Below are positions 17,343 through 41,894 of a DNA stretch of 64,000 bases, in pieces. The notes below the pieces were generated by a model. It saw only the letters and a program-made list of their open reading frames with translations. It did not search any database and was not told the origin of the DNA. Position 1 is the first letter of the stretch; every line of letters starts with the position of its first letter. Source of the stretch: an uncultured Desulfobacteraceae bacterium. Lineage in GTDB: Bacteria > Desulfobacterota > DSM-4660 > Desulfatiglandales > B25-G16. A program made the position numbers and the translations under genes. The stretch is from assembly GCA_964611035.1 (NCBI GenBank), contig CAZSWT010000012.1, positions 89-64,088 on the forward strand. The letters run 5' to 3'.

Positions 17343-17810
17343 ATGAACACAACAAACGCAATAATGTTTGTGGCTGATAAAATGCTTGGAAAATTAGCCA
17401 AGTACTTAAGGATTATGGGATACGATACCTTTTACCAGACGAGCTATCCAGATCAGAGATTATCAGACTTGGTTAGGGAGGGAAGGATTCTTCTAACAAG
17501 AAATCATATAACTGTTAGGCAATATTCAAACTCTATCTTTGTTGACTGCGATCTGGTGAAAGATCAATTAAAGGCAGTTGATAACTCACTGAAGCTTACA
17601 CGGGATCGGAGAGACTGGTTCAGTAGGTGCCTTGTCTGTAATTCACCTCTCTCCAAGGCTGAATTAGAAGTAGCACGGCAAAATGTTCCTGATTTTGTTT
17701 TTTTTAAGGACCATGAAAGGATTTTTTTTTGCCCAATTTGCAAACGATTTTACTGGCCAGGTACTCATAGAGAACGGATGGTAGAAAGATTAACGGATTG
17801 GGGATATTGA
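17343..17810 (+). CDS. Mut7-C RNase domain protein (PIN-like + zinc ribbon)
   Basis: FVADKMLGKLAKYLRIMGYDT at the N-terminus, and CLVCNSPL...FFCPICKRFYWPGTHRERM at the C-terminus. Confidence 0.75.
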   Translation: MNTTNAIMFVADKMLGKLAKYLRIMGYDTFYQTSYPDQRLSDLVREGRILLTRNHITVRQYSNSIFVDCDLVKDQLKAVDNSLKLTRDRRDWFSRCLVCNSPLSKAELEVARQNVPDFVFFKDHERIFFCPICKRFYWPGTHRERMVERLTDWGY

Positions 17811-17814: not shown

Positions 17815-19656
17815 ATGTTCAGTAACATTATTTATATTATTATTGTATTGGTACTATTTCAGTTTAATTACCCTGTGGAGGGTCTATTCAGATCACCTAT
17901 AATCTCCGTTTTTGTTATCTTTTTACTCTGGCTCAATTTTACAATCTACTGTAGATACCGCTTCTCCAGGCTTTTGGCTTTTTATAGAGGTAATCCCACC
18001 AGTTTTGCTCAAAGCAAGGTAAGTTCTGCCTATCAATCGGCAGTCACGAAACTCTCCATTTTATCCATAATGATATTCGCCTTATTTGTTTATCTTCTCA
18101 ATCTAAAATATTGGCTTCTTAAAATCCCTGGCTTCACCACTTTTTCAATTCTGCCAAGCGCTGTGGCCATCCTTATCTTTTTTATCTTTCTTGCCACCAT
18201 CTGGTATTATGGCTATCCCGCCTATTGTGCCATCTTTCCATGTTCGGCAACAAGGTGGGTCTATGTAGTATCAAATATAAAGCTTAATTTTCCTATTATT
18301 TTTCCTTGGGCAATCCTTACCGTTTGCTATGATTTAATTGGCTTACTTGCATGGCCATCTTTAAAGAAGATCTTTGAAAATGAGATCGGACAATTTATAT
18401 TTTTTACTGTATTTCTGATTATCCTTGTAATATTCCTCCCTCCCTTTATCAAATATTGGTGGGGCTGCAGCAGCCTTCCCCAGACAGAAAAGAGAGAGAG
18501 TATAATGAATTTTCTGCGGAAGTCTGGCTTTAAATATAGAGACATATTACGGTGGCCGCTATTAGAGGGGCGGATGATGACCGCTGGTGTTATGGGTCTA
18601 CTACCAAAATTTCGGTATATCCTTGTAACGGATTCTTTATTAAACCTCCTTTCAGAGGAAGAACTCAATGCGGTGATGGCCCATGAAATAGGCCATATAA
18701 AATATAAACACATTCTTTTCTACATCTTTTTTCTCTTAGGCTATATGGCTCTCTCCATGGGCCTTTTTGATATCATTTTCTATGTAATGGCCGCTAATCC
18801 CTGGTTATTTGACTTATTACGAAGCCAAAAAGAGGTCCAGACAGGTATATTTTATTCACTCTTCTCTGTGCCTGTCATATTGAGTGTCATCCTTTACTTT
18901 CGATATATCATGGGTTTTTTTATGAGGAACTTTGAGCGTCAGGCAGATCTCTATTCAGCTAAACTCATGGGTAAACCTGAACCCACTATTATGTCGCTTG
19001 AAAAGATTGCACAGGTTAGTGGTCAAAGTCGAAATCTCCCATCCTGGCATCATTTTAGCATTGCTGAAAGAGTTGAGTGTTTGTGGAGATCCTTGCAGGA
19101 TCCTCAATTAATCAAGCGCCATTCAAGACGTTTAGCACTCTTTTTGATTGTCTTTTTCCTCCTTATTGCCTCTCTGGGATACGCACTAAATTTTAGTCCC
19201 CTAAAGAGAAATATAGAGCATATATTTCTTACACATATCTTGAATCAGCAGCTCATTGACTCCCCAGAAAATATCGAGACCTACAAAAATCTTGCATACA
19301 TCTATCAAAGAAGAGAGAACCTTTCCAAGGCCAAATGGGCATATGAAAATATCCTCAGGCTCAATCCTGATGACGGAATGGCACTTAATAACCTTGCATG
19401 GATTTTAGCTACTGCCCGGGATACAACACTTCTTGATTACCCAAAGGCACTTTTATTAGCCAAAAGGGCTGTTGGGATAGAAAACTCGCCAACCTTTTTG
19501 GATACCTTAGCTGAGGCTTACTATGTAAACGGATTGCAGGATAAGGCAATACAGACTATAAAGCAGGCATTAGAAAAGGCATCTGATAATAGGAAATATC
19601 TTGTGAGTCAATTGGAGAAATTTAAGAAAGGGGCAAAAGGGGCTCCTGGAAGCTGA
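17815..19656 (+). CDS. M48-family zinc metalloprotease, polytopic membrane protein with C-terminal TPR
   Basis: HEIGH motif (AHEIGHIKYKH), multiple TM segments and a TPR-like C-terminus. Confidence 0.8.
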   Translation: MFSNIIYIIIVLVLFQFNYPVEGLFRSPIISVFVIFLLWLNFTIYCRYRFSRLLAFYRGNPTSFAQSKVSSAYQSAVTKLSILSIMIFALFVYLLNLKYWLLKIPGFTTFSILPSAVAILIFFIFLATIWYYGYPAYCAIFPCSATRWVYVVSNIKLNFPIIFPWAILTVCYDLIGLLAWPSLKKIFENEIGQFIFFTVFLIILVIFLPPFIKYWWGCSSLPQTEKRESIMNFLRKSGFKYRDILRWPLLEGRMMTAGVMGLLPKFRYILVTDSLLNLLSEEELNAVMAHEIGHIKYKHILFYIFFLLGYMALSMGLFDIIFYVMAANPWLFDLLRSQKEVQTGIFYSLFSVPVILSVILYFRYIMGFFMRNFERQADLYSAKLMGKPEPTIMSLEKIAQVSGQSRNLPSWHHFSIAERVECLWRSLQDPQLIKRHSRRLALFLIVFFLLIASLGYALNFSPLKRNIEHIFLTHILNQQLIDSPENIETYKNLAYIYQRRENLSKAKWAYENILRLNPDDGMALNNLAWILATARDTTLLDYPKALLLAKRAVGIENSPTFLDTLAEAYYVNGLQDKAIQTIKQALEKASDNRKYLVSQLEKFKKGAKGAPGS

Positions 19657-19766
19657 ACGAAGAAGGCTTCTAAGGGAATGGGAGAGAGCAATCATCAGAA
19701 ACAGGTCTTGGATTAGGTATAGTGAAGGGGGGGATATTCCGCTAGGTCTGTAAAGTCTTTCTAATG

Positions 19767-19794
19767 TTGACAACACAAATAATTGTATGATAAT
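19767..19794 (+). promoter_or_regulatory. Putative sigma70 promoter of the vapBC module
   Basis: TTGACA (19767-19772), ~16 nt, then GATAAT (19789-19794). Confidence 0.4.
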
Positions 19795-19866
19795 ATGATA
19801 TTTGATTGATGATTTCTATTATGACTTACTATCTGGTATAAGTAAACCGAAAAACGGAGTATCATA

Positions 19867-20118
19867 ATGTCAGTTGTTACTACATCAAGCCGGGGGCAGA
19901 TCGTCATTCCCAGAGATGTGAGAAAGCAGCTTCAAATCGGTCCAGGGAAAAAGGTCCTGATCAGGGCTGAAGGGGATAGGGCAATTCTTTTCCCGCTTCC
20001 TGATGATCCTGTGGATCATTTCTGCGGTATCTTTCAGAAAGGAACATCACTTACAAAGGCACTTTTGGCCGAGCGGGGAAAGGAGCGAGCTCGTGAAGCG
20101 AAAAAGATTACTGGATAG
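19867..20118 (+). CDS. vapB: AbrB/MazE/SpoVT-family antitoxin
   Basis: SRGQIVIPRDVRKQLQI looped-hinge-helix motif. It overlaps the PIN gene. Confidence 0.8.
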   Translation: MSVVTTSSRGQIVIPRDVRKQLQIGPGKKVLIRAEGDRAILFPLPDDPVDHFCGIFQKGTSLTKALLAERGKERAREAKKITG

Positions 20119-20503
20119 CTTTGCCATGATTGTTTATTTGAATAAAGAGAAGGGTTTTGAAAAGGTACGTGATGTAATGTCTGAGGCTCAGAAATCGGGT
20201 GACCATGTTTTGATGAATGAGATAAATGTGGGGGAAGTCTATTATATTCTTTTCAGAAAAAGGGGGCCAGAAAAAGCTGACTACTTCATAGAGACAATAC
20301 TTGCATCACTACCGATTCTTACAGTCTCGAATGGTTTTGATGATGTGATTAATGCTGCAAAAATTAAGGCAGAGCATCCTCTCTCCTTTGCCGATTGTTT
20401 TGCTGTTGATACGGCCCGCAAATATAATGCCGTTATCATGACAGGGGATCCGGAATTCAAAAAGATAGATCAGCTTGTTGAAATAGAATGGCTCGATAGA
20501 TAA
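20093..20503 (+). CDS. vapC: PIN-domain toxin VapC
   Basis: A GTG start at 20093 gives VKRKRLLDSFAMIVYL (conserved Asp near the N-terminus). FADCFAVDTA and MTGDPEF are typical PIN acidic positions. Confidence 0.8.
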   Translation: MKRKRLLDSFAMIVYLNKEKGFEKVRDVMSEAQKSGDHVLMNEINVGEVYYILFRKRGPEKADYFIETILASLPILTVSNGFDDVINAAKIKAEHPLSFADCFAVDTARKYNAVIMTGDPEFKKIDQLVEIEWLDR

Positions 20504-20686
20504 CGAAGCGAGGCAGAAATTGGATGGCCTCAATGTGCATTTTTTTGCCCAACTGCTCAATTCATGCCGATGAAAATTATGAGCCATTTTTCTCAAATTG
20601 ATGTGGAATCAAAATTGGGTGAAGGAACAACATTTACGATAACTTTACCTTGTGATATATTAGCCACAGATCCTCACGGACAATGA
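20504..20686 (+). pseudogene. Remnant of a histidine kinase C-terminus (HATPase_c tail)
   Basis: IDVESKLGEGTTFTITLP matches the kinase G2-box/C-terminal strand. No upstream kinase domains are present. It abuts the vapC stop. Confidence 0.55.
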
Positions 20687-21061
20687 AGATCAAAATTGAC
20701 CAATATTTGCCGAAAGCTCTATTATCTCTCACAGAGAGCACAGGGGACACAGAGCTATTAAAAAGCGAACATACAGAAATGAAGGAGTCACTTAAAAGGC
20801 CAATGGTAATACCTTAAAGGGCAAGAATAGGCTCGCTTATTCTTGCCCGCAATGGGGGCTCTCCATTGCTTCCGATTTGAATTCATCGGATGCCCGCTAA
20901 ATGGGCCTTTTATGCGATTTTATCAATTCCATTTTAGATTCTCCACTGTGATCTCTGCCTGCCCCGTTAAATGCGAAGCATATTTAACTGGGGAGAACTC
21001 AAGCGACCAGAGGGAGCGGGCGAGGGCAATCTATAATACTATCCGTAATTGGGAGGATATT

Positions 21062-21334
21062 ATGGAACAAATCGGGATAAGAGACAAAGCGTTGCCAATA
21101 TTGAAATCTTCTATAGCTTTAAAAGAGAAGCTACTAAAAGCAAAATCGAAGAGCTACCGCAAGCGTCTAAAAATATTTGAAAAAAAACATAAAATGAAGT
21201 CTGAGCACTTCATAAAAGAGTTTAACGCCGGTAAGCTTGGTGACGATGCAGAATGGTTTGATTGGCTCTTTGTATATGAAGCATACAACAGAGTAACAGA
21301 GCAGGAAAAAATAATAGAAGGGCTTTCACTGTGA
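21062..21334 (+). CDS. Small coiled-coil protein, probable antitoxin partner of the DUF6516-like gene
   Basis: ATG at 21062 with GGGAGG upstream. It overlaps the next gene by 4 nt (GTGA). The longer track ORF (from 20843) translates repeat sequence. Confidence 0.5.
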   Translation: MEQIGIRDKALPILKSSIALKEKLLKAKSKSYRKRLKIFEKKHKMKSEHFIKEFNAGKLGDDAEWFDWLFVYEAYNRVTEQEKIIEGLSL

Positions 21335-21708
21335 CCATTCGCTATTTTGAAAAGGTCAAAAAGAGAATAGCTAAATTGGAGTGGTTAATAGAACGGAAAA
21401 GTATTGATACTGAGTATGACGAAGACGCTGATGTTGGTTACATTGGAGGGTATATAAACTTCAAGGATGGTTCCATATTTCATTTCAAAGAAATTCTATT
21501 TGGACAGAACAGGCATTATAGATTTCACTATATGGATGAGAAACACAATCTAATATCCAGATGGGATACTGCGCCGCATCACAAGAAATTGAAAACTTTT
21601 CCTTATCATGTCCATTTACCTGATGGTGTGAAAGAATGTAAACCGGTTACACTTAATGGTGTCCTTGATAGGATAGAAAGCATTGTCATTGATAGATTAG
21701 AGGAGTGA
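21331..21708 (+). CDS. DUF6516 / TumE-like toxin-family protein
   Basis: RWDTAPHHKKLKTFPYHVH matches the RWDNAPHH...FPHH.H signature as I remember it for this family. Confidence 0.5.
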   Translation: MTIRYFEKVKKRIAKLEWLIERKSIDTEYDEDADVGYIGGYINFKDGSIFHFKEILFGQNRHYRFHYMDEKHNLISRWDTAPHHKKLKTFPYHVHLPDGVKECKPVTLNGVLDRIESIVIDRLEE

Positions 21709-21739
21709 TCTCAAACCTTAGTAAAGGGTCGCGGTAGGA

Positions 21740-22024
21740 ATGCGGGTTCCCCGCACAGATCCCAAGCATGGGGTTGCTGATATTTGCGAAATGGACCTGG
21801 ATGAGATTTATTCAAAAGGTAAGCAGCAAAAAAAAGTTAAAGCCAGGAGTCTTCTTTGCTCTTGGCCTGCCTGTGCCGGCACGGCAGACAGGGCTGTCAG
21901 GGAACTGGGTATGTCGCTCACAGATCTGGCCAGGCATCTGGGAATCAGTGTTCCAGGTGTAGGGTATGCCGTGGAGAGAGGGGAGTCTATTGCACGAGAC
22001 AATAATTATCAACTGGTTGATTGA
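21740..22024 (+). pseudogene. C-terminal remnant of an IS200-like/REP-associated Y1 transposase with DnaA-C-type HTH
   Basis: KARSLLCSW...AVRELGMSLTDLARHLGISVPGVGYAVERGESIA resembles the C-terminal HTH of these proteins. The N-terminal catalytic domain is absent. Confidence 0.45.
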
Positions 22025-22112
22025 TTTACTTTGTTTTTTAAGGGCGTCCCGCTTTACGCTTTATATTGAATTTTTGCGATAAAAAGATCACCAGAAGGAG
22101 TCATTTATCTCT

Positions 22113-23573
22113 ATGAAAATAGGAAGAAATGATCCCTGCCCTTGTGGAAGCGGTAAGAAATACAAGAAGTGTTGTTTGAAGAAGGATGAATTGAAAAAAG
22201 CGATTTCACTACCCAAACGAAGGACTGCTGCGGAATCCGTGGATTCCCTCCGTGGGAAAATCATGAAGTTTATTGATATGGAGAACTTAAGGGACTATTA
22301 TCCAGCGGCCATCGACCAATATTGGAAGACACTTAGGCAGGGCCAGAACCTTCGGGCTATGGTAGAAACCGATATGATTGGTTTCACGGAGTGGTTCGTT
22401 CATGATTACGTCCTTCCTGGCTTTGGAAAGCCACTTATCACTGTCTATCTTGAAAATAATCCAAAGCTAACCAGAACGGAACTCCGGATACTGAAAGACT
22501 GGCAGGAGACCAACATCTCCGTCTATCAAATCACCCGTGTAGAAGAGAATAATGGCGTTTACTGTGAGGACATCTTTACAGACAAGGGATTCTTTATCCA
22601 CGATATCAGTATTTCAAGGTCCATAAAGCAATGGGAATTATTGATGGCCCGAAAGGTGTGGGTTTTGGACGAGTGGCAATTGTCGGCAATGGGAGCAAAA
22701 CTACCTCCTAACGAAAAAAAGGATATTTATGACTTTGTGATGGGCCATTATCTGAAGCACCTGGAATCACATCCAAATACCTCGCTTACGGATTTTCTAC
22801 AGCAAAAGGGATATCTTCTCAGACAATATGTGATTACAAAAGAAGTCGAACCCACTGAATCACCAAGGATCGTCACCAGCCATGGGGAGGAGATGGTCAT
22901 GTATGATGCGATCTACGATGTTATTGATTGTGACTTAGTGGTAGAAAAATTATCCAAGATCTCTGATTACCAAATGACGGGATACACTGAGCATAAGGAT
23001 GGTGAAGCTTTGAATTATACCTTCGATTGGCTTGAGAAAGGAGAGTCTTCTAAGCTGTTCGAAGGAAAACATCCAAAAGAAGGAATGATTTTTCAATCGT
23101 TTTTTACGGAGGGACCTGGCCATGAAAGCTATAGGGTACTGGGGAATCTTAAGTTAGGTCCCGATAGACTAAAATTATCGGCCATGGGAGAGGATAGGTT
23201 CAAAGCAGGGAAGACCGTTTTAGAAAAAAATCTAAAACCTGCAGTTAAGCATAGATTGGACAGCATACAGACCCTTGAATCGAAGTTGAGCGAAGACAGG
23301 AGGGCATCCGACACCGAAGAGATCGACCCCGAGATACAAAAGGGAATTACTAAAGATTTTTTCGATAAATACTACAGAGATTGGCTTGATTTCAAAATCC
23401 CTGCCCTTGAAGATAAGACGCCAAGGGAAGCTGCAAGGACGAAGGAGGGGAGAAGGGAGCTTGAGGAATTGCTAAGATTGTTAGAATATAGGGAACAAAG
23501 TAGGAGAGAGAATGGACAGCCCGAGTATGACATTGCTTGGATTCGCAAAGAATTAGGGATAGAGAAAAAGTAA
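22113..23573 (+). CDS. SEC-C metal-binding motif protein (486 aa), function unknown
   Basis: N-terminal [18 protein letters not shown]. The rest is unassigned. Confidence 0.7.
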
Positions 23574-23907
23574 TTTCATCTTTCAGATGTCAGAATTCGA
23601 TGTTTCTTATATGATTGTTGAGAAATCGGAATCCAAAAAACTTATGACTACCAAACGAAACCTTGAATGAAATTTAATTTGGCTGTACGATCGATTATGG
23701 CACGAAACCTGAATTTCCTACCAAAGCCAAATTATGCATAATCATGTTAAAATGTTATACTTTTTAGATCGCTGATATGTGGCAGAGTACAAACCCGAAC
23801 CAAGCTTGGATATTTTTCCGATAACACAACGTTATAAAAATTAAAGGTACTGACAAGATAGCACAACGACTCAAATTTAAAAGACATAGTATCTCTAATA
23901 GGTACAT

Positions 23908-24594
23908 GTGATGTCGGAATTTAAAAGGTGTAAAGGACTTAATCAAAAAGGTAAGAGATGTGGAGCGCAGGCTGTTAAAGGATCTGAATACTGTGTTGCT
24001 CACCAAGACCAAGCCCCTAAATCCCATATTAAGACTCCATTCTATAAAGATATTAAGTTTTTAATCCCAATAATTATAACCATATTTTTAGCCATTTATT
24101 TTGGGAGTAAAAGTGCTACAAAAAAAGGACAACAAATTACACACCAAGATCAAAATAAAACTCACAAAACATTAGATCGTATGGAAAAGAACATAAACAA
24201 AATTATCGATAACCACTCAAAAGCCTCTCAAGAATATTTAGAAGAAAAATACGGCTCTCTTCCAACTTTCTTTGGTGCAACGGATAAAGGTGCAATAGTT
24301 CCCTATGGTGGTAATCCGGCGGGTATAAATATCGATTGGAAATCTGCTTTAGTGTTAAATGTAACGCATAATGAAATAAAAATACAAATTCCAGACATAT
24401 CAATAAATACGGATAAGATTAAAGGATTGACATTCGTAAATATAAAATTTGTAATGATAAAAAAAGTCGGTTATACGATAGCACCCATCGGCGACAGAAG
24501 ATTTGAAATTAGGGCTACTGTTGTTGGAGTAGATCAAGGAATAACAGTGATTGGTTTATCAGTTGTTTTAAAATCTGGTTCTTCTCCAAATTAG
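23908..24594 (+). CDS. Hypothetical membrane-anchored protein with an N-terminal Cys/His cluster
   Basis: CKGLNQKGKRCGAQAVKGSEYCVAH, then one TM segment. The last 5 codons plus the stop are supplied by the MITE insertion. Confidence 0.45.
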   Translation: MMSEFKRCKGLNQKGKRCGAQAVKGSEYCVAHQDQAPKSHIKTPFYKDIKFLIPIIITIFLAIYFGSKSATKKGQQITHQDQNKTHKTLDRMEKNINKIIDNHSKASQEYLEEKYGSLPTFFGATDKGAIVPYGGNPAGINIDWKSALVLNVTHNEIKIQIPDISINTDKIKGLTFVNIKFVMIKKVGYTIAPIGDRRFEIRATVVGVDQGITVIGLSVVLKSGSSPN

Positions 24595-24863
24595 TTGGTA
24601 GAAAAATGATTTACCAAAATACAACATATTGAAATTAAATGTAATTTCACCATTAACCTTTTTGATTAATTAGGCCATATTGTTAGGTGATAATGTTACT
24701 CCAGAAATTAAGTATTAACAGGAAATTACTTTTATAGGCAACTGCTATGATGAGCCTGGTAGGTACCCATTATCGGAGTTGCTTTTAAAAGCTATACCTA
24801 CTGAAATCATTAATCAAATAAGATTTAAGCCTTAATCTTGACCAACTAATTTGGAGAAGATCC
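24577..24863 (+). mobile_element. 287-bp MITE, copy 1
   Basis: 23-nt terminal inverted repeats (TIRs) GG(T/A)TCTTCTCCAAATTAGTTGGT. Flanked by direct TAAAATCT (24569-24576 and 24864-24871). Confidence 0.85.
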
Positions 24864-24931
24864 TAAAATCTTAATTTAAATAATAATCCAATCTGCTATT
24901 TATCATCAAAAAAGTACCTTTTCCAAATTAC

Positions 24932-25009
24932 AGATAACTCCAACGTATTCGTAAAGTTAAAAGCGATTAAAACCTGTGATATCTAAACTCCCCGTTTGGA
25001 ATGTTACGG
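24932..25009 (+). other. attC-like site
   Basis: AGATAAC-TCCAACG...CCGTTTGGAAT-GTTACGG. About 65-70% similar to 26542-26618. Confidence 0.5.
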
Positions 25010-25209
25010 TTGCATGTATCTGCTATCTTTGGCAGGGTTTCAGCACGTTATAATGCTGCGATATCGAAACCGTATCGGAAAAACGTTAGCAATCCCAATA
25101 TGATGAGCTCATGGCAAGATATGTGGAAAACGAGTCGCTAGCCTCGAAAAATCTTGAACAGTACCCTTTCCGTTCCTAATAATAGACTGTGAAGTTCTTA
25201 CACATGCGG

Positions 25210-25215
25210 TATAAT
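25210..25215 (+). promoter_or_regulatory. Possible -10 box (TATAAT) upstream of the HEPN-like gene
   Basis: A perfect TATAAT lies 35 nt upstream of the ATG at 25250. No convincing -35. Confidence 0.3.
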
Positions 25216-25249
25216 AGTTCCATTTCGATCAAATAAAGGACCCAGGTTA

Positions 25250-26404
25250 ATGAAGGCTCAGAAGAATGAAACTTTCTTGTATGAGGTCTCTTTTTATGTA
25301 AATACGGCACATTATCTGCCAGTCTTGTGGAAACATGATCCTCTTTCTTTCCAGTGGGCGAAATTATCTGTCATTCCTTTGAAGAAATGTAGCAATCATG
25401 ATGATGAAGGTAAGGAAGGATTCGATGATGCGATCAAGACCAGCTACACCATTCCAGCCGAATCAATCAACGAAGCAATCTCTAAATCGCTAATGGTGAA
25501 CAGGTTCATCTTGAATATTGCTTCATTTTACTATTCAATTGGGTTAAACATAAAATCGCCTCCGTGCATTACTGAGTTGGATACCGGTAAAGGAGTAGTT
25601 TATGATTTCCGCCGTCTTACTTTTTCGAAAGATAACTTCTGCACAAAGATCGTCGATACATATTTCCCCTTTCTTACAGATGGGGGGGAAGGGAGCCTTA
25701 AGTTCAAATTAGATCAAATATCGTCTTATGAATATAATGAGCTTTTTGAAATTGACGATTTTCATAAAACGATCAAGACTTTTCTGGCGCTCTACAATGC
25801 TTACATTAAGGACTCAGCATTAAGAAAAAAAATAGATTTCTCACTCAATATTTTGAATGAGTCTCAGCAAATTCCGGGATTTGTATCGAGGTTTATCTTG
25901 TACTGGAGGGCCTTTCAGCAACTCGTTGAACGACCCGTTCCAACTGGTATCGTCAATGAAAAAAGTCTTCAAGAGATCATCTCGATTCTGAAGAAGCAAG
26001 AAGCCCCAAGATTATCTCAAAAAGAAATATCAAGAATCAGGGATCAGATACGTATAATTCATTCTAGGTCGAGGGCCGATCTAATAGTCGATGAGATGAG
26101 AAGTTATTTCACAGAATCTGAACAGGAACTTAGAGACATCTATACCAAGCTGGCAGAAACTCGAAATAAACTCATTCACGGTGGATACAAAGGAGAAGAA
26201 ATCCCCAATTTGTGGTTTGATACAGAGTTACTTAAATCGATTGTTCGCCAGATGGTTGGCGTGCACGTCGGTTACAAAAAAAGTGAATTGAAGATGCCAA
26301 GCCTCAAGGATTTTCGTGTAAGGTCAGCTCCGAAACCTGTAATACATATTGGTATTGGTAAGCCGGATGAGGATATTGCGAGCAAATCTCGGATTAGGAA
26401 GTGA
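25250..26404 (+). CDS. Hypothetical protein with a C-terminal HEPN-like Rx4H motif
   Basis: LAETRNKLIHGGY (R-N-K-L-I-H) sits in a helical C-terminal half. The N-terminal ~190 aa are unassigned. Confidence 0.45.
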   Translation: MKAQKNETFLYEVSFYVNTAHYLPVLWKHDPLSFQWAKLSVIPLKKCSNHDDEGKEGFDDAIKTSYTIPAESINEAISKSLMVNRFILNIASFYYSIGLNIKSPPCITELDTGKGVVYDFRRLTFSKDNFCTKIVDTYFPFLTDGGEGSLKFKLDQISSYEYNELFEIDDFHKTIKTFLALYNAYIKDSALRKKIDFSLNILNESQQIPGFVSRFILYWRAFQQLVERPVPTGIVNEKSLQEIISILKKQEAPRLSQKEISRIRDQIRIIHSRSRADLIVDEMRSYFTESEQELRDIYTKLAETRNKLIHGGYKGEEIPNLWFDTELLKSIVRQMVGVHVGYKKSELKMPSLKDFRVRSAPKPVIHIGIGKPDEDIASKSRIRK

Positions 26405-26541
26405 AACGATTCCAAGCACACCCATTCTTTGCCTAGTGTTATAATTCAGTGGAAGTGATAAATTAGGTCGCTGATCTCCATTGTTATCTCACTTTGAGAT
26501 ATCTGTTATCCACCACAGGTTTATCCCAGTTCTAAAACCTG

Positions 26542-26618
26542 AGCTATCTCCAACATATCTGAAAAATTTATAGGTCATCAAAACCTGTGCTAACCAAACT
26601 TCATTCGGAAGGTTACAG
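26542..26618 (+). other. attC-like site (degenerate 5' box)
   Basis: AGCTATC-TCCAAC...TTCGGAAG-GTTACAG. Direct-repeat partner of 24932-25009. Confidence 0.4.
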
Positions 26619-26857
26619 TTTACTGCTATAAATAGAAAGTCTCTCGCAAGTTTCCTGGCTTTTTATTACTATACGTAACATGGATAGGAGGGGTGCATAG
26701 TACTAACTGAAGTAAACCCCGATTCATAGCATATTTCAATCGTAATTCATTCAAAACAGTGGGTCGAAGATCCGCAAAAAAAATTGTAAGTTAACCTTAA
26801 AGTTCCTATCCTGAAATAGTACGATCAAATTTCAGTTGTTACACCTTAACGATATAT

Positions 26858-28825
26858 TTAGATACCCAAGTCTTTTTTAGCGGACTCCAATTGATCCTGA
26901 GCGAATTCCCATCGTGCTATCAATTCTTTTACCTTTTCTCTGATTTCACTATATTCATTCAAGAATGATGGGCTTTTATCTTTATCTGCGAAAACCGCTG
27001 GGTCTGAAAGAATTGTTTCCAGTTCTTTTTGCCTTTTTTCCGAATCAGAAATCCTCTCTTCTAATACAAGCAGTTTCTCCTGAATGGGTTTAAGAGTTTC
27101 CCTGATCAACTGGCGTTTTTCTGCCGCTTCTTTTTTCTGTGCCTTTCGAGATTTTTTATCTCCACTGGGTACTATTTGACTTTGTTTCTTATCTGAGTCT
27201 TCAGGTGAAGTCTTGGCAATTCTTTCCAGATGATCATAATATTCATTGAGATTGCCAGGGTATTCTTCAATTTCTTCACCTTGTATATCCCAGATCTTTG
27301 TTGCTAATCTGTTTACAAATGATTGGTTATGGGAAACAAATAATAATGTGCCTTTGTAATCAGTTAGGGAATCTATTAAAATTTCTGATGATATAAGATC
27401 AAGGTGATTTGTTGGTTCATCCATCAACATAAGGTTTCCGGGTTTTACAAGCAATTTCGCAAGCGATACCCTTGCCTTTTCTCCACCTGAAAGGATGCCT
27501 ATTGACTTGTCTACATCGTCACCTGAAAAGAGAAAAGCCCCACACACAGTCCTTGCAAACCCTATTGTTTCATTGGGGGTAGCCAGGCTCACTTCCTCAA
27601 CTATTGTCTTTTTAGGGTTAAGCATATCGGTGTGATGCTGGGCAAAGTAAGCCATGGTTACCTTGTGGCCCAGTGTTATCTCACCACGATCAGGTGGAAT
27701 CTCTCCTGCTATCATCCTGAGTAAAGTTGTTTTACCAGCACCGTTTGGCCCTATAATGGCTATCCTTTCACCCCTTAGTACACTGAGGTTGATGTTAGTA
27801 TAAACGATTTTATTATTAAAACCTTTTGAAACCCCTTTGATTATTACCACATCTCTCCCACTCCTAAGAATAGCAGGAAAAGAGAAATGGATGGTCTTTT
27901 GAGGACGGTAGGATTCAACGAGTTCCATTTTTTTGATTAATTTAATTTTACTTTGCGCTTGTCTCGCTTTTGAGGCCTTCGATCGGAATCTTTCAATAAA
28001 CCTCTCGGCTTCTTTTATTTTTTGTTCCTGGTTTCTGGCCTGCCGCAGACGGATCGATTTTTCTTCTTCTCTGGCTTTTAGATAAAAATCATAATTTCCG
28101 CTGTAGGTTTTCAAACCCTCTGGTTCAAAACTTATGATGCGATTTATTTGCTTATTTAAAAAATCCTTGTCATGGGATACAAGAATTATAGCGCCTTTAT
28201 ATGTTTGAAGGAATTGATCCAACCAGTGTACAGACGGGATATCAAGATGATTGGTCGGTTCATCCAGCAAGAGGAGATCAGGCGTCTGATAAAGAAGACT
28301 CCCTAATACTGTTCTCATTCTCCATCCTTCGCTCAGGGAGGAAGCGGGAATGTCAAAATCCTCGGATCGAAAACCTAAACCTGCAAGGATTTTTTCGGCC
28401 TCATGCGAAGGGAATTGCCTGTCCAGATAACTTATCTCTTGGTGGAGCTCTGCAAGCTTCCCTGCCAGTTTTAGTTGGCTGTCTTTGTTCTGGATATTTT
28501 TCAATGATTCTTCTGTCCGCATTATCTCATCTCTAAACCTCACCCTTCCTGGTATGGAATCCAGAATAGATTGGAGTATCCTGCCGGATAATGCAGTATG
28601 GACATCCTGGGGAAGGTATCCTATCCGTATTCCTTTTCTTTTCTTAATCTCTCCAGTGTCAGGAGAAATTTCGCCACCTATCAGTCTCAACAATGTTGTT
28701 TTACCTGATCCATTTGGGCCTACAAGGCCAATCCTGTCTCCAGACTCGACCTGAAGTCCTATTTCATGGAAAAGATTTTTTCCTAAAAAGGTGATGGAAA
28801 GGTTAGAGATGATTACAAGGCTCAT
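26858..28825 (-). CDS. ABC-F family ATPase (two ABC domains, C-terminal coiled coil)
   Basis: Two Walker A motifs (GPNGSGKTT, GPNGAGKTT), two LSGG signatures and no TM domain. Confidence 0.9.
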   Translation of the reverse strand: MSLVIISNLSITFLGKNLFHEIGLQVESGDRIGLVGPNGSGKTTLLRLIGGEISPDTGEIKKRKGIRIGYLPQDVHTALSGRILQSILDSIPGRVRFRDEIMRTEESLKNIQNKDSQLKLAGKLAELHQEISYLDRQFPSHEAEKILAGLGFRSEDFDIPASSLSEGWRMRTVLGSLLYQTPDLLLLDEPTNHLDIPSVHWLDQFLQTYKGAIILVSHDKDFLNKQINRIISFEPEGLKTYSGNYDFYLKAREEEKSIRLRQARNQEQKIKEAERFIERFRSKASKARQAQSKIKLIKKMELVESYRPQKTIHFSFPAILRSGRDVVIIKGVSKGFNNKIVYTNINLSVLRGERIAIIGPNGAGKTTLLRMIAGEIPPDRGEITLGHKVTMAYFAQHHTDMLNPKKTIVEEVSLATPNETIGFARTVCGAFLFSGDDVDKSIGILSGGEKARVSLAKLLVKPGNLMLMDEPTNHLDLISSEILIDSLTDYKGTLLFVSHNQSFVNRLATKIWDIQGEEIEEYPGNLNEYYDHLERIAKTSPEDSDKKQSQIVPSGDKKSRKAQKKEAAEKRQLIRETLKPIQEKLLVLEERISDSEKRQKELETILSDPAVFADKDKSPSFLNEYSEIREKVKELIARWEFAQDQLESAKKDLGI

Positions 28826-34627: not shown

Positions 34628-35370
34628 CCGATGGCCTCCATAACCTCATCGGAGATGTCAAAATTGGCATATACGTGGTTTACATCTTCGTTATCTTCTA
34701 GATTTTCCATCAGGGTTAACATCTGTTGAGCATGTTTATCATCAATCTTAACAGTTGTATTGGGGATCATCGTTATCTCTGCGAATGTATAACTTATTCC
34801 TGCATTCTCAATAGCCGCTTTTACCTGTTCAAAGAAGGAAGGTTCAGTTATTACCTCAAGCTCTTTTTCATCTTCTTTGATATCATCAGCCCCAGCCTCT
34901 AAAGCCAATTCAAACAACATTTCTTCCTCTACCTCATCTTTTTGAAAAACTATAAGGCCCTTCTGAGAAAACATCCAGGCTACGCAACCTGACTCCCCTA
35001 AGTTGCCTCCTGATCTTTCAAATAGGTGCCTGACATCTGCAACGGCTCTGTTTTTGTTATCAGTCAATACCTCAATCAAAACAGCTACACCTCCTGGGCC
35101 ATATCCTTCATAGGTGACTTCTTCATAATTAGAGCCTTCTAATTCTCCGGTTCCTTTCTTAATAGCCCTTTCAATATTCTCCTTGGGCATATTTTCTGCC
35201 TTGGCTGTAGCTACAGCCACCCTTAACCTTGAGTTAGAATCTGAATCTTTTCCGCCCAGCCTTGTAGCAACAGTAATCTCCTTGATAAGTTTAGTAAAAA
35301 CCTTTCCCCTCTTAGCATCAACTGCTCCCTTTTTATGTTTTATGGAGGCCCATTTTGAATGTCCAGACAT
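34624..35370 (-). CDS. yebC: YebC/PmpR-family DNA-binding regulator
   Basis: [23 protein letters not shown], the canonical N-terminus. Confidence 0.95.
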
Positions 35371-35806
35371 TTATTACTCCCTTTTCTTGATGAAGTCGTT
35401 AAATCGTTGAGTTATTAAATTGTTTACCCCTCAACAACAGACTGCGGACAATAGCCAACTGATATCCTATGCCCAAATCTTTTTAGGTTTTTAACATAAT
35501 TAACTTTTTTTTGCCATATCAATTTAGGCATATCTTTTAAAGAGTTGAATTTTGCAAAATTTTTAAATCCTTGCCAAGTTTTTTATTTGACTTTATTATA
35601 TTTAATTGGATTAGATTAAGGCCTTGCTATTTTTTTAAGGATTTAGATTTCTGATGATCTTCAATAATTTTTTGCGGTGGCAACCTTGTTCCCCTTGGTG
35701 GACAAAATATATTGGAAGCGGCTGTATGGTGTAAGGCGGTTATTTATGGCCCCTTAATGGAGGATTTCTTAGAAGCCAAGGCATTATTAGTTCACCCAGA
35801 GGGATG

Positions 35807-35883
35807 TATATCCGAACATGGTTCGTATATACGCCTAAATTGGAAGGATATCAGAACCTATTTCGGATATAAACGAGTTATAT
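35807..35883 (+). other. Degenerate attC-like site at the head of the cassette array
   Basis: TATATCCGAA...TTCGGATATA stem followed by AACGA-GTTATAT. The 5' AAC box is missing. Confidence 0.35.
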
Positions 35884-35907
35884 GAAATAGCCCTAAGGTG
35901 AGATAAA

Positions 35908-36378
35908 ATGCTTCCAGATTTACTAAAGAGAAATTTGCGCGTTGTGATTTGTGGAACTGCTGTCGCTAATTATTCTGCAAAAGTGGGTTCATATTATGCG
36001 GGTGCCGGCAATAAATTTTGGCGAGTCCTTTTCGAGGTTGGATTAACACCCGTTATGCTGAACTCGAAAGATTATCAGAAACTGCTTAAATACGGGATCG
36101 GACTTACAGATCTGGCTAAAAATAAAGCTGGTCCCGATAGTAAGATTCCCTCTCATGCTTTCGATATTGAAAGATTCAAGAAAAAGATACAGGATTGTCG
36201 CCCGAAGGTAGTTTGTTTCAACGGCAAGAAAGCCGCTAAAATTTATCTGCGTAAAAAATATGTTGAATTTGGGTTACAGAAAGAACAGATCGAAAGTACC
36301 CATCTTTTTGTTGCACCGTCCACGTCAAGGGCGGCAAACCGCTGGTGGGATCAAAAATGGTGGCAAGAGATTTTATAA
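35908..36378 (+). CDS. mug: G/U mismatch-specific uracil-DNA glycosylase (Mug, UDG family 2)
   Basis: LRVVICGTAV...GNKFWRVLFEVGLTP parallels the E. coli Mug N-terminus as I recall it. Confidence 0.7.
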   Translation: MLPDLLKRNLRVVICGTAVANYSAKVGSYYAGAGNKFWRVLFEVGLTPVMLNSKDYQKLLKYGIGLTDLAKNKAGPDSKIPSHAFDIERFKKKIQDCRPKVVCFNGKKAAKIYLRKKYVEFGLQKEQIESTHLFVAPSTSRAANRWWDQKWWQEIL

Positions 36379-36398
36379 AGAAATGAATGGGCTACTTC

Positions 36399-36487
36399 AT
36401 ATAACACAGCATAAAAGGTTCGTGCCTTACGGCACTCACCTAAATTTTTGCTTCGCAAAAACTTCTTCGATGCTGGGAACGTTATAC
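36399..36487 (+). other. attC-like site 1
   Basis: ATATAAC-ACAGCAT...ATGCTGGGAAC-GTTATAC with two internal hairpins (GTGCC/GGCAC and TTTTTGC/GCAAAAA). Confidence 0.6.
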
Positions 36488-36516
36488 GACATAAAAATAA
36501 TTTACAGGACAAAAAG

Positions 36517-37128
36517 ATGGACGAACTAGAAGAAACGTATTCAAAACTTACCGATAATGAACTCTTGATTATGGTATACTTTGAGAGTTCAGACTATAAT
36601 GAAGAAGCGATTAAAATTGCTAAGTCAATTTTGGATAAGAGAGGATTAGGTCAACCATCAGATGAAATTTTGCAGCAGGCTAAAAACTATCATAGTCAGC
36701 TGAAGGAATCGCAAAAAGATCAATTTGCAGAAAAAATCCAATCCCGTGATGTGTTTAGATTTGGAAAATTAAAACAGGCATTTAAAGAAAAAAATTATTA
36801 TTTTATTGGTAAATTGTCGTTTTGGTTTGTAATCGGTTATGGTCTTTACTCTGGTTTAAGTATTGGCAGTGGCAGGGGAAAGTGGATTGAACTAATTCCC
36901 TTTGCAGAAACAATTAAATCAGAATGGCTATTTATCCTAGAAGTAGTTTTCAATATTGCCATCCTTGGAATATTTCCTATTATCTTTTTCATTATATATA
37001 GCCTGAAACTTTCGCAAGAACAGAGAAAAGAGCGGAGATTATCTTTGCTTATGCCGAAATATATCTTTTTCATTTATGGAATTTCGTTGTTTCTTTTTTT
37101 TGTTCTTGTTATTTTGCCAAGATTGTGA
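36517..37128 (+). CDS. Hypothetical membrane protein (cassette gene)
   Basis: I prefer the ATG at 36517, because the track start at 36448 lies inside the attC-like site. Soluble N-terminus plus 3-4 TM segments. Confidence 0.5.
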   Translation: MDELEETYSKLTDNELLIMVYFESSDYNEEAIKIAKSILDKRGLGQPSDEILQQAKNYHSQLKESQKDQFAEKIQSRDVFRFGKLKQAFKEKNYYFIGKLSFWFVIGYGLYSGLSIGSGRGKWIELIPFAETIKSEWLFILEVVFNIAILGIFPIIFFIIYSLKLSQEQRKERRLSLLMPKYIFFIYGISLFLFFVLVILPRL

Positions 37129-37138
37129 TTTTTACGTC

Positions 37139-37218
37139 GCCTAACAGCGGATAAAAGGGAAATCAAAGATTTCCCAAAATTGCCTTCGGCAATTTCTTTT
37201 ATCCGCAAAACGTTATAT
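37139..37218 (+). other. attC-like site 2
   Basis: GCCTAAC-AGCGGATAAAAG...CTTTTATCCGC-AAAAC-GTTATAT with internal hairpins GGGAAATC/GATTTCCC and AAATTGCC/GGCAATTT. Confidence 0.65.
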
Positions 37219-37251
37219 GAAATTGCTGTTAATTAAGGGAAAGGAGATATT

Positions 37252-37797
37252 ATGAACAAAAAATCTTTTTATCCATTGTTAGTAACTGGATTGGCCATCT
37301 TAGGAATGCTTACAGGGAGCTGTAGTAAAGCTCCAAATCCTAATCCAGCACCAAAGAAACCGAGTACTATGACAATTTCTGAAGGGAAAATTACCATAGA
37401 GATAAAGGCAGAAGGAGGGACTTTATATTACTTTGAGAAAAAAAGATGGGCTGCGAATGAATCCCCAGAGCTAAAAGAAAAAGATAAATTTAGATCTAAC
37501 CAAATTGAAAAATTTAAGGCAACCTATCGGGTAAATGCTGCCAATTTTAATGTAGAGATTGATAAAGAGGAAAAAACAACTGACTTGAAATGTAATATTT
37601 ATGTTAAATTTGATACCTGGTATGACTTTCACTGGTTTCTGAGGCCTCTTGGCCTTGATTTTATAGATAATCATTTTGAAAGAAGAGAAAAAGAGTTATC
37701 ATGGAAAGGGTGTTTGGATGGGGTTAAGACGACTATTCTGCTTAAATTTCCATTTAGGATTAATAATTGTCATGCACATGTCTGGCCAGCGAGATAA
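37252..37797 (+). CDS. Hypothetical lipoprotein (cassette gene)
   Basis: Signal peptide ending LTGSC. No family recognised. Confidence 0.5.
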   Translation: MNKKSFYPLLVTGLAILGMLTGSCSKAPNPNPAPKKPSTMTISEGKITIEIKAEGGTLYYFEKKRWAANESPELKEKDKFRSNQIEKFKATYRVNAANFNVEIDKEEKTTDLKCNIYVKFDTWYDFHWFLRPLGLDFIDNHFERREKELSWKGCLDGVKTTILLKFPFRINNCHAHVWPAR

Positions 37798-37799
37798 AA

Positions 37800-38030
37800 A
37801 TGATAGTAGTAAAATGTGCTCAATGCAAAGGGAAAATCTTCAAATATCAAAAGATTGGGAAAGGTCGATTATGGCACTGCTGGAAGGAGCGAATAATCGA
37901 GGATTATAGTATTAGAGATGGAAATAAAGTTAAATGCCAATGCGGTAATCTAATTGGTATTGTTGAAGGAAAATGGATTAAGATGAGGCAGCATTCTTTT
38001 ACCCACTCAGGGGCAATAACAAAAAAATAG
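37800..38030 (+). CDS. Small zinc-ribbon-like protein (76 aa)
   Basis: CAQC...CQC pairs. The ATG at 37800 lies just downstream of the lipoprotein stop. Confidence 0.4.
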   Translation: MIVVKCAQCKGKIFKYQKIGKGRLWHCWKERIIEDYSIRDGNKVKCQCGNLIGIVEGKWIKMRQHSFTHSGAITKK

Positions 38031-38039
38031 GAGGTAAAA

Positions 38040-38678
38040 ATGAAGGTCACTATTGTTTATGACAACACTGTTTACCAAAGAGGCCTCAAATCCGATTGGG
38101 GCTTTTCTTGCCTTGTAGAAGTAGAGAAGACGCCGAGAATTCTTTTTGACACGGGGACAAATGGTTCTATACTTCTTTCAAATATGCAAAAACTTAATAT
38201 CGATCCTACTTCTATCGATGAAGTTTTCATTTCCCACCCCCATTTTGATCACATTGGTGGACTTTCTGATTTCCTCCAGGTGAACAGGGAAGTCAAGATT
38301 TATATCCCCACTTCCTGTCCCAAGCCTTCTGGAGCAAAGGAGGTAGTTAGCATTGGACAGCCCCTTCAAATCCACGAAAATATCTCCTCTACTGGCGAGC
38401 TCGATGGTATAGAACAGAGCATGGCGGTCAAAATGGATAAGGGAATAGTAATGGTCGTAGGATGCTCCCACCCAAAAATGGAGCATATTCTACAGGCAGC
38501 TTCTCAATTTGGTAAAGTTTATGGTATTATAGGAGGATTGCATGGAAATAGGCCTGAATCCTTGAAGGACTTGGATTTGATTTGTGCGACCCATTGTACT
38601 CAATATAAGTCAGAGATAAAGTCTCTCTATCCGGAGAAATATATTGAAGGTGGAGCAGGAAGAGTAATTGAAATTTAA
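38040..38678 (+). CDS. MBL-fold metallo-hydrolase (COG1237-like)
   Basis: HPHFDHIGG metal motif. GGAGG upstream of the ATG. Confidence 0.8.
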   Translation: MKVTIVYDNTVYQRGLKSDWGFSCLVEVEKTPRILFDTGTNGSILLSNMQKLNIDPTSIDEVFISHPHFDHIGGLSDFLQVNREVKIYIPTSCPKPSGAKEVVSIGQPLQIHENISSTGELDGIEQSMAVKMDKGIVMVVGCSHPKMEHILQAASQFGKVYGIIGGLHGNRPESLKDLDLICATHCTQYKSEIKSLYPEKYIEGGAGRVIEI

Positions 38679-38679
38679 T

Positions 38680-39510
38680 ATGAATCTCAAAATCTTAATT
38701 TTAATCGGAATCTTAATTTTGACAGGGACAGGAATTTGTTTTTAAATTCAAGCTGAAAAAGCAACTTCGCCAGAAATTTCTATTGAATCAGAAAAAGAAG
38801 AAAAACCAGAAATAACCTTAATTTCGGTTTATGATAACTGCCAGGTAGATCCCGATCTGAAAACTGCATGGGGTTTTGGATGCGTGATAAAAACCCCTAA
38901 AGAACTAATATTGTTTGATACCGGGGGAAATTCAAAGATTTTGCTTTTCAATATGGAGAAGATGAATATCAATCCCAAATCAATTAATAAAGTAATTATT
39001 TCTCATATTCATGGAGATCGTGTGGGGGGATTAGAAGGATTTTTAGAGAAAAATAGTAATGTTACCGTCTTTATTCCAAGTTTCCTTCCTAATTCCTTTA
39101 GAGATATGATAACCAGTCAAGGAGCTGAATTTGTAGATGTTTCAGTCCCTAGAAAAATTTCTGATTTTATTTATACCACTGGAGAACTTTATGGACCTCC
39201 AAAAGAGCAATCTCTAATTATAGATTCAAAAAAGGGCTTAATAGTTATTACTGGGTGTGCTCATCCTGGAGTTGTAAATATTGTTAAAAAAGCCAAAGAA
39301 TTGATGAAAAAAGATAATGTATATCTTGTTATAGGGGGTTTTCATCATCCTCCTATAGCTGTAGTTAAAAAGTTTAGAGAACTTGGAGTAAAAAAAGTTG
39401 CACCATCTCATTGCACAGGTGATTTAGTTAGAGAGGCATTTAGAGAAGAATATAAAGAAGATTTTATAGAATACGGAGTAGGAAAAACAATTGAGATTAA
39501 AAATAATTAA
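38680..39510 (+). pseudogene. Secreted MBL-fold paralog interrupted by an in-frame TAA (38743-38745)
   Basis: ATG at 38680 gives the signal peptide MNLKILILIGILILTGTGICF, then TAA. The same frame continues IQAEK...ITLISVYDNCQVDPDLKTAWGFGCVIKTP, homologous to the N-terminus of 38040-38678 and upstream of the track's GTG at 38884. Confidence 0.6.
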
Positions 39511-39542
39511 AATGTGTTTAATATATCTTCGTTCGCACTATC

Positions 39543-39630
39543 GCCTAACAGCGGATATGAAGTTTCAGCCTTCGGCTTTCGCCCAAATACTCTCTACGCT
39601 CGGCCTTCTCATATCCGCGAACCGTTAATT
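39543..39630 (+). other. attC-like site 3
   Basis: GCCTAAC-AGCGGATATGAAG...CTTCTCATATCCGC-GAACC-GTTAATT. Same class as site 2. Confidence 0.65.
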
Positions 39631-39656
39631 GAAATGGAAGCAAAAGCAGGACAGCG

Positions 39657-40661
39657 ATGATGAACATAGATTTCATTATGACTAGGACGAAAATTTGGTG
39701 GGACGCTGCAAGGTGGTTGGCACTCCCACAATCAGCAATGGCCTGCGCCGTTGGCGGGCTCATTGCCTTCTACCATGGCAAGTTTGATCCGCTACTGTTT
39801 CTGGTCACATTCGCTGGCCTGGTGGCAGTTCATCTCGGCACGAATCTGCTGGATGACTACGCTGACTTAAAAATTGGTGGTTTTTCCATTCGAAATAAGG
39901 TTCAGCAGGCAGGCGATACTGTGCGCACTGAAAAGGCACCTTATGTCATCAACGGCACCATCAAGCTCGATCACGTACTCTACGTTTCATTAGGGCTTTT
40001 CGCACTCGGCCTGCTAGCTGGCGCTTATCTCACGGCAATATCTGGCTGGCCAGTTGCAGCTATAGCTGCCGCTGGAGCGTTCTTTTGCTTTTTCTACTCT
40101 ATGCCACCCGTAAAACTATGCTACCGCGGCATGGGAGAAGTGGCCGTAGCCTTCTCATTCGCGATGACATGTGTGGGCACTTACTACGCCGTGGCACAAA
40201 GCTTTAGTTGGGAGCCGGTTTTCATCTCGGTGCCTATCGGCATCATGGTTGGCCTGATCCTTTACGTCCATTCCATAATGGATTTTAAGCCCGACCTTGC
40301 GGTCAAAAAAAGAACCCTGGTTATGGTCCTTGGTAATCAGCAAAAGGCCATACGGTTACTGCCGCTGGCATTTGTAATAGCTTATGGTTCCATTATTGGC
40401 GGCATAGCGATGGATATCTTGCCGCTCACTACCCTTTTGACACTCCTAAGCATTCCTATGGCAATTAAGCTTGCGCAGCTTATGCGCCGGATAGGACAGG
40501 GTGATTATGAGGTCAAGCGGACTTGGTGGATGGGGCCCATGGAGAGCGGTTTAGTGGAAATAGGACAGTGGTTTATGGTTCGATGGTATCTGGCACGCAA
40601 CCTGATGGTAGCCACTACCCTGCTAATATTTGCTGCGTATATTATAGCGTTAGTCTTTTAG
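39657..40661 (+). CDS. UbiA-family (MenA-like) aromatic prenyltransferase
   Basis: 8-9 TM segments and the Asp-rich NLLDDYADLK motif. Confidence 0.8.
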   Translation: MMNIDFIMTRTKIWWDAARWLALPQSAMACAVGGLIAFYHGKFDPLLFLVTFAGLVAVHLGTNLLDDYADLKIGGFSIRNKVQQAGDTVRTEKAPYVINGTIKLDHVLYVSLGLFALGLLAGAYLTAISGWPVAAIAAAGAFFCFFYSMPPVKLCYRGMGEVAVAFSFAMTCVGTYYAVAQSFSWEPVFISVPIGIMVGLILYVHSIMDFKPDLAVKKRTLVMVLGNQQKAIRLLPLAFVIAYGSIIGGIAMDILPLTTLLTLLSIPMAIKLAQLMRRIGQGDYEVKRTWWMGPMESGLVEIGQWFMVRWYLARNLMVATTLLIFAAYIIALVF

Positions 40662-40673
40662 TGAGGAGGCCAC

Positions 40674-41588: not shown

Positions 41589-41628
41589 ATAATTAACCTT
41601 TTGAAGCATGAACTCTATCTTGCACTTC

Positions 41629-41882: not shown

Positions 41883-41894
41883 GAGGTGATAAAA

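Follow-up and report, generated by a model that had tools for sequence, protein, structure and literature searches.

A rare HEPN-like gene between imperfect direct repeats at a variable chromosomal site of an uncultured Desulfobacteraceae bacterium

Several groups of HEPN proteins invite comparison with the gene described here. ApeA is encoded by a lone gene and carries a C-terminal HEPN-type domain with an Rx4H motif behind non-catalytic regulatory domains; it cuts tRNA anticodon loops and is activated by a ligand bound away from the active site (bioRxiv 10.64898/2026.01.26.701840). An integron-cassette HEPN family, the PDB 3jrt group, has been described, with a suggested role as a stress- or dormancy-inducing RNase (PMC3710099), and it is well established that integron cassettes can carry defence genes, an idea published for mobile as well as chromosomal integrons. 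HepT/MNT pairs represent the logic of a minimal HEPN RNase toxin. The present gene encodes a 384-aa HEPN-like protein and is located in a 64,000-nucleotide stretch of DNA from an uncultured Desulfobacteraceae bacterium (GenBank assembly GCA_964611035.1, contig CAZSWT010000012.1, forward-strand positions 89 to 64,088), hereafter the window, whose first letter is position 1. Our preferred reading, held overall with no more than middling confidence, is that of a rare HEPN-like gene which forms the outermost module of a chromosomal insertion hotspot and is flanked by two direct repeats, sites A and B, that are scars of insertion junctions.

With ApeA the protein shares the lone gene and a C-terminal HEPN-type domain with Rx4H, and HEPN_Apea (PF18739) is its best, albeit sub-threshold, Pfam match. 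ApeA, however, has about 580 aa, is almost entirely alpha-helical and consists of an N-terminal, a Mid and a split HEPN domain, whereas the present protein is 384 aa long, with an N-terminal half that is beta-rich; moreover, the ApeA-type model of PADLOC yields one weak match among 12 family members, and PDB yields none. The protein is not an ApeA. Like the 3jrt group, homologues of the gene are borne on integron cassettes, but sequence similarity to that group is not detectable (the PDB profile search was empty), an extra N-terminal domain of about 170 aa is present, and the window copy lies outside an attC array. The minimal toxin logic of HepT/MNT and the toxin-antitoxin neighbours (PIN/MazE, TumE) are shared as well, but no MNT or other small partner gene is adjacent here, and regulation in cis by the N-terminal domain is more likely than regulation by a partner gene. 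Sites A and B, finally, resemble the attC sites of sedentary chromosomal integrons and of clusters of attC sites lacking an integrase (CALIN) in their AAC/GTT-type end boxes, their length of about 80 nt and their direct orientation around a single promoter-bearing gene. They differ in having neither a stable R/L-box hairpin nor compensatory changes, in the mutation of one AAC, in being negative with our attC covariance model (R1, see below) and in their large distance from the gene.

The HEPN-like protein and its family

The gene and its motif are located as follows:

25250 to 26404, forward strand: HEPN-like gene, 384 aa, ATG start, the sole long open reading frame (ORF) of its interval
26162 to 26179, forward strand: codons of the Rx4H motif (R305-x4-H310), with R305 and H310 invariant in homologues

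The initial annotation had drawn attention to this ORF for the string ETRNKLIHGG in its translation, and both are present; Rx4H reads R305-N-K-L-I-H310. Its description as a lone gene with a conserved Rx4H and an unrecognised N-terminal half also stands: R305 and H310 are invariant in 12 of 12 close homologues and in two relatives at 25-27% identity (P0005 and P0007), and no family was matched by the N-terminal half (residues ~1-165). Residue E282, situated in the helix preceding the motif helix, is invariant too. According to the secondary structure of AlphaFold2 (AF2) models, the 384-aa protein comprises two domains, the beta-rich N-terminal half and an all-alpha C-terminal half (~170-345). 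In both models Rx4H closes a predicted helix (291-310), which is followed by a loop and a further helix (315-339); this helix-end position is where the HEPN motif is located (Anantharaman et al. 2013, PMC3710099).

HEPN_Apea is the sole Pfam family with E <0.001 and matches two of the 12 members (best E 2.9e-4). The PADLOC check suggested in the initial annotation did return HEPN families, which account for four of the six weakly matched ones (Csx1, Csx1/Csm6, Cas13-ApeA), but only below threshold (E 0.002-0.013). Those weak HEPN matches for which coordinates are reported fall on residues 257-343. The profile matches are consistent with each other but weak, all being sub-threshold. The C-terminal domain is probably a HEPN RNase.

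Several points weigh against this reading. HEPN_Apea scores 20.7 bits (E 5.8e-4) against a cut-off of 24.4, and every HEPN profile remains below its curated threshold. A profile of four family members (A2) found no solved HEPN structure in PDB. Both AF2 models are of low confidence (pLDDT 42.8 and 48.3), which renders a fold search meaningless, and therefore do not show a four-helix HEPN core. No antitoxin partner is evident beside the gene, and the toxin or defence role of the protein is at most probable. A protein that is not a HEPN nuclease, with Rx4H in a helical domain of some other function and encoded by an ordinary accessory gene, would agree with the sub-threshold profiles, with HEPN_Apea being confined to two members, with the lack of PDB and NCBIfam matches and with the poor models. 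It agrees less well with an R and an H that are invariant family-wide down to 25% identity, with two independent libraries in which most weak matches are HEPN models, with a motif whose predicted position in the secondary structure fits HEPN, and with the toxins that accompany the gene both here and in cassette arrays; we consider this alternative unlikely.

The family is very rare, with about 15 clusters among 5.8 billion sequences. Twelve clusters of homologues have 45-61% identity, besides distant or split relatives, and a HMMER scan of 1.84 billion representatives returned only four proteins below E 0.001; the HMMER matches include P0005, a relative of 369 aa and about 25% identity. A curated family for the 384-aa protein was not found, and the family has no NCBIfam match and no match to a PHROG family with known function. 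A profile of the C-terminal domain retrieved only short relatives, none of them with a Pfam label. Split forms are present in two distant lineages (L112, 988-2075; L113, 336-1456), in which an N-terminal gene of 197 or 228 aa is followed by a C-terminal gene of 136-138 aa carrying Rx4H. The split point is identical in both lineages, just before the YW..E helix, so the two halves appear to be separable modules.

Direct repeats at the edge of a variable islet

The features around the gene are, from the left:

19657 to 26620, no strand: variable islet between an M48/TPR peptidase gene (17815-19656) and an ABC-F gene (26858-28825, minus strand)
24932 to 25011, forward strand: site A, left copy of the imperfect direct repeat, AGATAAC...GTTACGG
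25018 to 25026, forward strand: ATCTGCTAT motif, 8 nt past site A
25112 to 26509, forward strand: conserved gene module, the sole part in common with L116, a 96.7% identical variant from another sample (SRR14872670)
26501 to 26509, forward strand: ATCTGTTAT, right end of the module common to L116, which reads ATCTGCTAT there
26542 to 26620, forward strand: site B, right copy of the direct repeat, AGCTATC...GTTACAG
26621 to 26629, forward strand: TACTGCTAT, the counterpart after site B, first bases of the conserved chromosomal flank

Two related direct repeats had been claimed to flank the gene, and they are indeed found. In the best local alignment of the two intergenic regions (24595-25249 versus 26405-26857), A and B are about 68% identical, with a Smith-Waterman score of 45 versus 21.7 +/- 2.4 (maximum 32) in 500 dinucleotide shuffles, i.e. 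about 9.7 standard deviations above. Chance origin of the repeats is ruled out by this shuffle test. Their orientation is direct, the reverse-complement score being at background. Searches of the window and of 116 retrieved loci with blastn-short and nhmmer gave no third copy, and the 18-base core of A/B has 19 single matches in 596 Gb of GTDB genomes, all in unrelated taxa, with about 17 estimated by chance. In Smith-Waterman comparisons with the boundary regions of relatives, the chromosomal CTGCTAT flank alone was matched. Rfam, searched at gathering threshold over the whole window and by E-value over 24600-26900, gave nothing relevant, and a tRNA/tmRNA scan for possible integration targets gave none.

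L116 shares only 25112-26509 with the window and therefore has neither site A nor site B, so the two sites belong to the window locus and not to the gene. The common module contains a promoter-like region, the gene and about 105 nt of 3' sequence. Promoter-like hexamers are located upstream of the gene at 25154-25183; the only small upstream ORF (25001-25141) is not conserved in L116. The divergence of L116 sets in about 100 nt inside both ends of the cassette that the initial annotation had proposed.

The 7-kb islet contains, besides the HEPN-like gene, MazE-PIN, a 90-aa gene with TumE, a 94-aa gene with a SEC-C/DUF7986 gene, a zinc-finger 228-aa gene and a miniature inverted-repeat transposable element (MITE). 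The HEPN-like gene is the last, i.e. outermost, module of the islet, convergent with the ABC-F gene and 650 nt downstream of the zinc-finger gene. For comparison, 75 metagenome loci with relatives of the ABC-F gene were used (L037-L111; nearest about 94% nucleotide identity). In relatives with ABC-F at 76-94% identity the interval is highly variable, being either empty or occupied by other genes. L053, L081 and L098 have an empty interval of 80-200 nt. The interval contains a DUF4139/DUF4140 gene in L047, L049 and probably also in L048 and L057 (similar-size ORFs, unscanned), ParE and a helix-turn-helix gene in L044 and, by ORF layout, in L042, and a PIN gene in L038; further relatives have still other genes there. 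None of the islet genes of the window is carried by any relative fetched.

In the relatives L094, L058, L059, L103/L104 and L048, which represent five distinct left-hand contexts, the non-coding DNA adjoining ABC-F is conserved. The homology of all five ends at window 26614-26623, the right edge of site B (...GGTTACAG/TTTACTGCTATAAATAG, the slash marking the boundary). As the conserved flank begins at this edge, site B is placed at the junction of inserted and ancestral DNA. In L059, an attC-like palindrome of 71 nt (GGCCAAC...GTTACTG, -7.4 kcal/mol) ends at the same boundary; apart from it, attC arrays were not found beyond background in the hotspot of the relatives. The boundary facts fit a recombination junction, without indicating which recombinase.

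A heptamer, CTGCTAT, recurs at these boundaries. The similarity of A and B extends through the downstream motif (ATCTGCTAT and TACTGCTAT, respectively) and stops just past it, and ATCTGCTAT-like copies are also present 32 nt upstream of each site. Together, such motifs flank both sites, at a distance of 32 nt on the left and 2-8 nt on the right, and in the five relatives the conserved flank sets in at CTGCTAT or a few bases ahead of it. In the window CTGCTAT occurs 17 times, against 7.9 +/- 2.9 expected. ATCTGCTAT or a near variant is located at module junctions at 24891, 25018, 26501, 26621 and 41707 of the window, at 1408-1422 of L116, where it ends the module, and in L104, where an insert of about 150 nt is flanked by CTGCTATAAAT and CTGCTATTAAT. 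All this would suit repeats that are unrelated to integrons, namely att arms left by tandem accretion of small integrative modules at a CTGCTAT core through a recombinase acting in trans, or two old copies of a non-autonomous element of about 115 bp that targets the motif. Against this, the islet has no recombinase gene, the left end of the L116 module (25112) is without a CTGCTAT-type motif, no third copy of the repeat was found and the elements have no terminal inverted repeats. Furthermore, the ATCTGCTAT 9-mer is also present at 41707, where it completes the R' end of the true attC 41624-41715 of the window, so the motif may itself be integron-derived; a related GTTATCTGCCAT follows the attC upstream of the homologue P0009. 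An origin of the repeats apart from integrons is, in our view, doubtful, to about the same degree as a non-HEPN protein.

Other elements of the islet and the window merit mention. The 94-aa protein, with weak helix-turn-helix matches, and the 486-aa protein that follows it (21740-23573) may constitute another uncharacterised toxin or defence pair; the latter has an N-terminal SEC-C zinc motif, with weak PADLOC matches to E2 and PDC-S12, DUF7986 and a weakly Xre/MbcA/ParS-like C-terminus. The MITE, 287 bp long, is present at 24577-24863 and 44374-44660 in opposite orientation and with 98-100% identity. Its terminal inverted repeats are 22 bp long (GGTTCTTCTCCAAATTAGTTGG) and the target duplications 8 bp (TAAAATCT and ACAATTTT); the first copy has taken the place of the final codons of ORF 23908-24594. 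The presence of the MITE in two copies accounts for the breaks that many metagenome contigs have some 480-510 nt upstream of the HEPN-like gene; strain variation was rejected as their cause. An IS110-family transposase gene (7345-8334) lies amid repeated non-coding segments (7111-8624) with a 78-nt unit in four copies, at 7111, 8264, 8484 and 44991; the copy at 44991-45131 has no transposase gene beside it. The repeated segments could hold the guide (bridge) RNA region.

The attC array and the status of sites A and B

A genuine attC array is located 9 kb from the HEPN-like gene, beyond trkAH and ruvABC-yebC, and the gene lies outside it. The array extends over 35789-42277 and comprises at least five attCs:

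36399 to 36487; 37139 to 37218; 39543 to 39630; 41624 to 41715; 42170 to 42277: attC sites, with compensatory L-box changes

It was found through attCs of L012 that match the window at 35.8 and 37.1 kb, after which the region 35300-42420 was read. The sites have the form GCCTAAC/AGATAAC...AAAAC-GTTATAT, with R' mutated to GCT in attC 41624-41715. The array abuts yebC-ruvC-ruvA-ruvB, and neither an integrase nor any other tyrosine recombinase was seen among the Pfam-scanned ORFs of the window, which cover about half of those with 100 aa or more. It is, within this window, CALIN-like, i.e. an attC cluster without an integrase. Its cassettes encode a uracil-DNA glycosylase (UDG)-family protein, a membrane protein, a four-gene unit with two metallo-beta-lactamase-fold proteins, UbiA with a radical SAM protein, and a MqsA-like zinc-ribbon antitoxin. 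The first site of the array (35789-35883; L012 537-628) is unusual in that it is built from a pair of direct 40-nt units, both of which contain a small hairpin. It lacks an R'' box, its last bases are GTTATAT in the window and GTTAGGC in L012, and it is 82% conserved between the two; it could be an attI-like site without its integrase.

The HEPN-like family does travel elsewhere as an integron cassette. At least four homologues are cassette-borne, with at least two attC sequence types. In L012, canonical attCs are located on both sides of P0003 (99 and 78 bits). In L117/L118 an attC follows 25 nt after the stop codon of P0009 (79.9 bits). L033 has a 60-nt site (GCCCAAC...GTTGGGC, arm energy -16.4 kcal/mol) 49 nt before the start of P0013, and L119/L120 (P0012), read by eye, have GTTGGGC upstream and GCCCAAC...GTTAGGT downstream. 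L011, with the closest homologue (61%), has one attC-like candidate at 2167-2287 that ends in GTTACGG, and no array. Most of the remaining homologues are on contigs of 1.2-2 kb, as is typical of assemblies breaking in arrays. The integron connection drawn in the initial annotation is thus upheld by these homologues and by the array 9 kb away, but not by A and B as attC.

R1, a covariance model from five local-family attCs, recovers the three training sites of the window at 83-92 bits and two untrained sites at 49.5 and 26.2 bits. The attC covariance search of the flanks that had been suggested was done with this model and missed both sites: in an unfiltered search, no score above 9.2 bits was obtained anywhere in 24500-26900. 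The genuine GCCCAAC-type attC of L033 likewise escapes R1, which is for this reason family-specific, so a model-free fold test was added. In this test, all 2036 AAC...GTT pairs of the window that are 40-125 nt apart were given DNA folds in which the two triplets had to pair. The true attCs reach -14.8, -19.0 and -7.1 kcal/mol, whereas site A, with -2.4 kcal/mol, ranks 1341st of the 2036 and is at the 53rd percentile of those candidates that have a similar length, and site B has +4.3 kcal/mol. Ranked by their R/L arms only, the true attCs are at 4, 18 and 60 of 2036, site A at 247. Unconstrained single-strand DNA folds of the two sites are not significant (z-scores -0.7, -0.2, -0.9 and +0.05), and the internal stem once ascribed to each site is therefore not above chance. 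Two-sequence consensus folds contain no compensatory pairs between A and B, and by inspection two of their differences break pairs of the putative L-box stem; the true attCs of the window and L012 have compensatory changes in six of 12 L-box pairs. Of the AAC/GTT-type ends, those of site A were confirmed, TAAC pairing with GTTA, but not those of site B, where ATC stands for AAC and the triplet is broken. Site A precedes the start codon by 240 nt and site B follows the stop codon by 137 nt, compared with 25-50 nt in true cassettes (about 25 nt after the stop in L012 and L117).

By the R1 score, the forced-fold energies, the ATC of site B, the distances to the gene and the limits of the L116 module, A and B are not supported as attC, and neither is the view of 24932-26618 as a packaged mobile cassette. 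The available tests do not show them to be working attCs, although they may have originated from attC and be decayed or very divergent. Two further sequences, attC-like with the interior removed, are located at 17501-17525 (GCCTAACAGTTATAT) and 23814-23842 (GATAACAcAACGTTATAA); both are weak attC-model matches (E ~1) and may be chance palindromes.

That A and B are junction scars is what we infer from these comparisons. To the points already raised against our overall reading must be added that an empty site, a circular form and a donor site were not found, that no recombinase is assigned, and that R1 is specific to one attC family, so that the sites may still belong to a divergent attC class. 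A bolder version would have short modules, each made up of a gene and an arm of about 100 nt, accrete site-specifically at the hotspot on a chromosomal core around (G)TTA/TCTGCTAT, outside any canonical integron, through an integrase acting in trans or an IntI accepting weakly structured, non-canonical attC-like sites. A and B would be the arms of two insertions in succession, and the HEPN-like protein would be a new single-gene defence nuclease with a new sensor domain that shuttles between true arrays and such hotspots; this we regard as distinctly improbable. Least probable of all, and by a small step only, is that A and B are functional attCs of a divergent, weakly structured class and that ~25005-26612 is a cassette movable by an integrase encoded elsewhere (expected junctions at the proposed crossover: empty site ...CGTTTGGAATG/TTACAGTTTACTGC, circle ...CATTCGGAAGG/TTACGGTTGCATG): the ends AGATAAC...GTTACGG, with an AGATAAC R'' box that recurs in true attCs at 42175 and in L012 and L117, the 78-nt length within the attC range, the cassette-borne homologues, the true array in the window, the end of site B at the conserved flank as expected for a G/TT crossover and the L059 palindrome at the same boundary speak for it, but site A folds no better than the median of random AAC...GTT pairs, and the other grounds just listed, the pair-breaking L-box differences between A and B and the lack of intI among the scanned ORFs stand against it.

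Proposed function and significance

In the reading that we prefer, the HEPN domains would dimerise to form a composite Rx4H active site, by analogy with ApeA and HepT, and the N-terminal domain would restrain the nuclease or sense a trigger. Phage infection or stress may then lead to the cutting of tRNA or mRNA and to growth arrest, as in a toxin or abortive-infection protein. Sites A and B would be the scars of insertion junctions; they may derive from attC by decay, or may have served a different recombination event as att-type sites.

If the protein is an active HEPN nuclease, a beta-rich N-terminal domain joined to HEPN would be a new and very rare architecture among single-gene toxin and defence proteins, and the family would be one more case of integron cassettes as a reservoir of such genes. 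The window copy is a member of a cassette-borne family that lies outside an attC array, in a toxin-antitoxin hotspot. Current views are not overturned by it, and the escape of cassette genes from arrays can be studied concretely at this locus.

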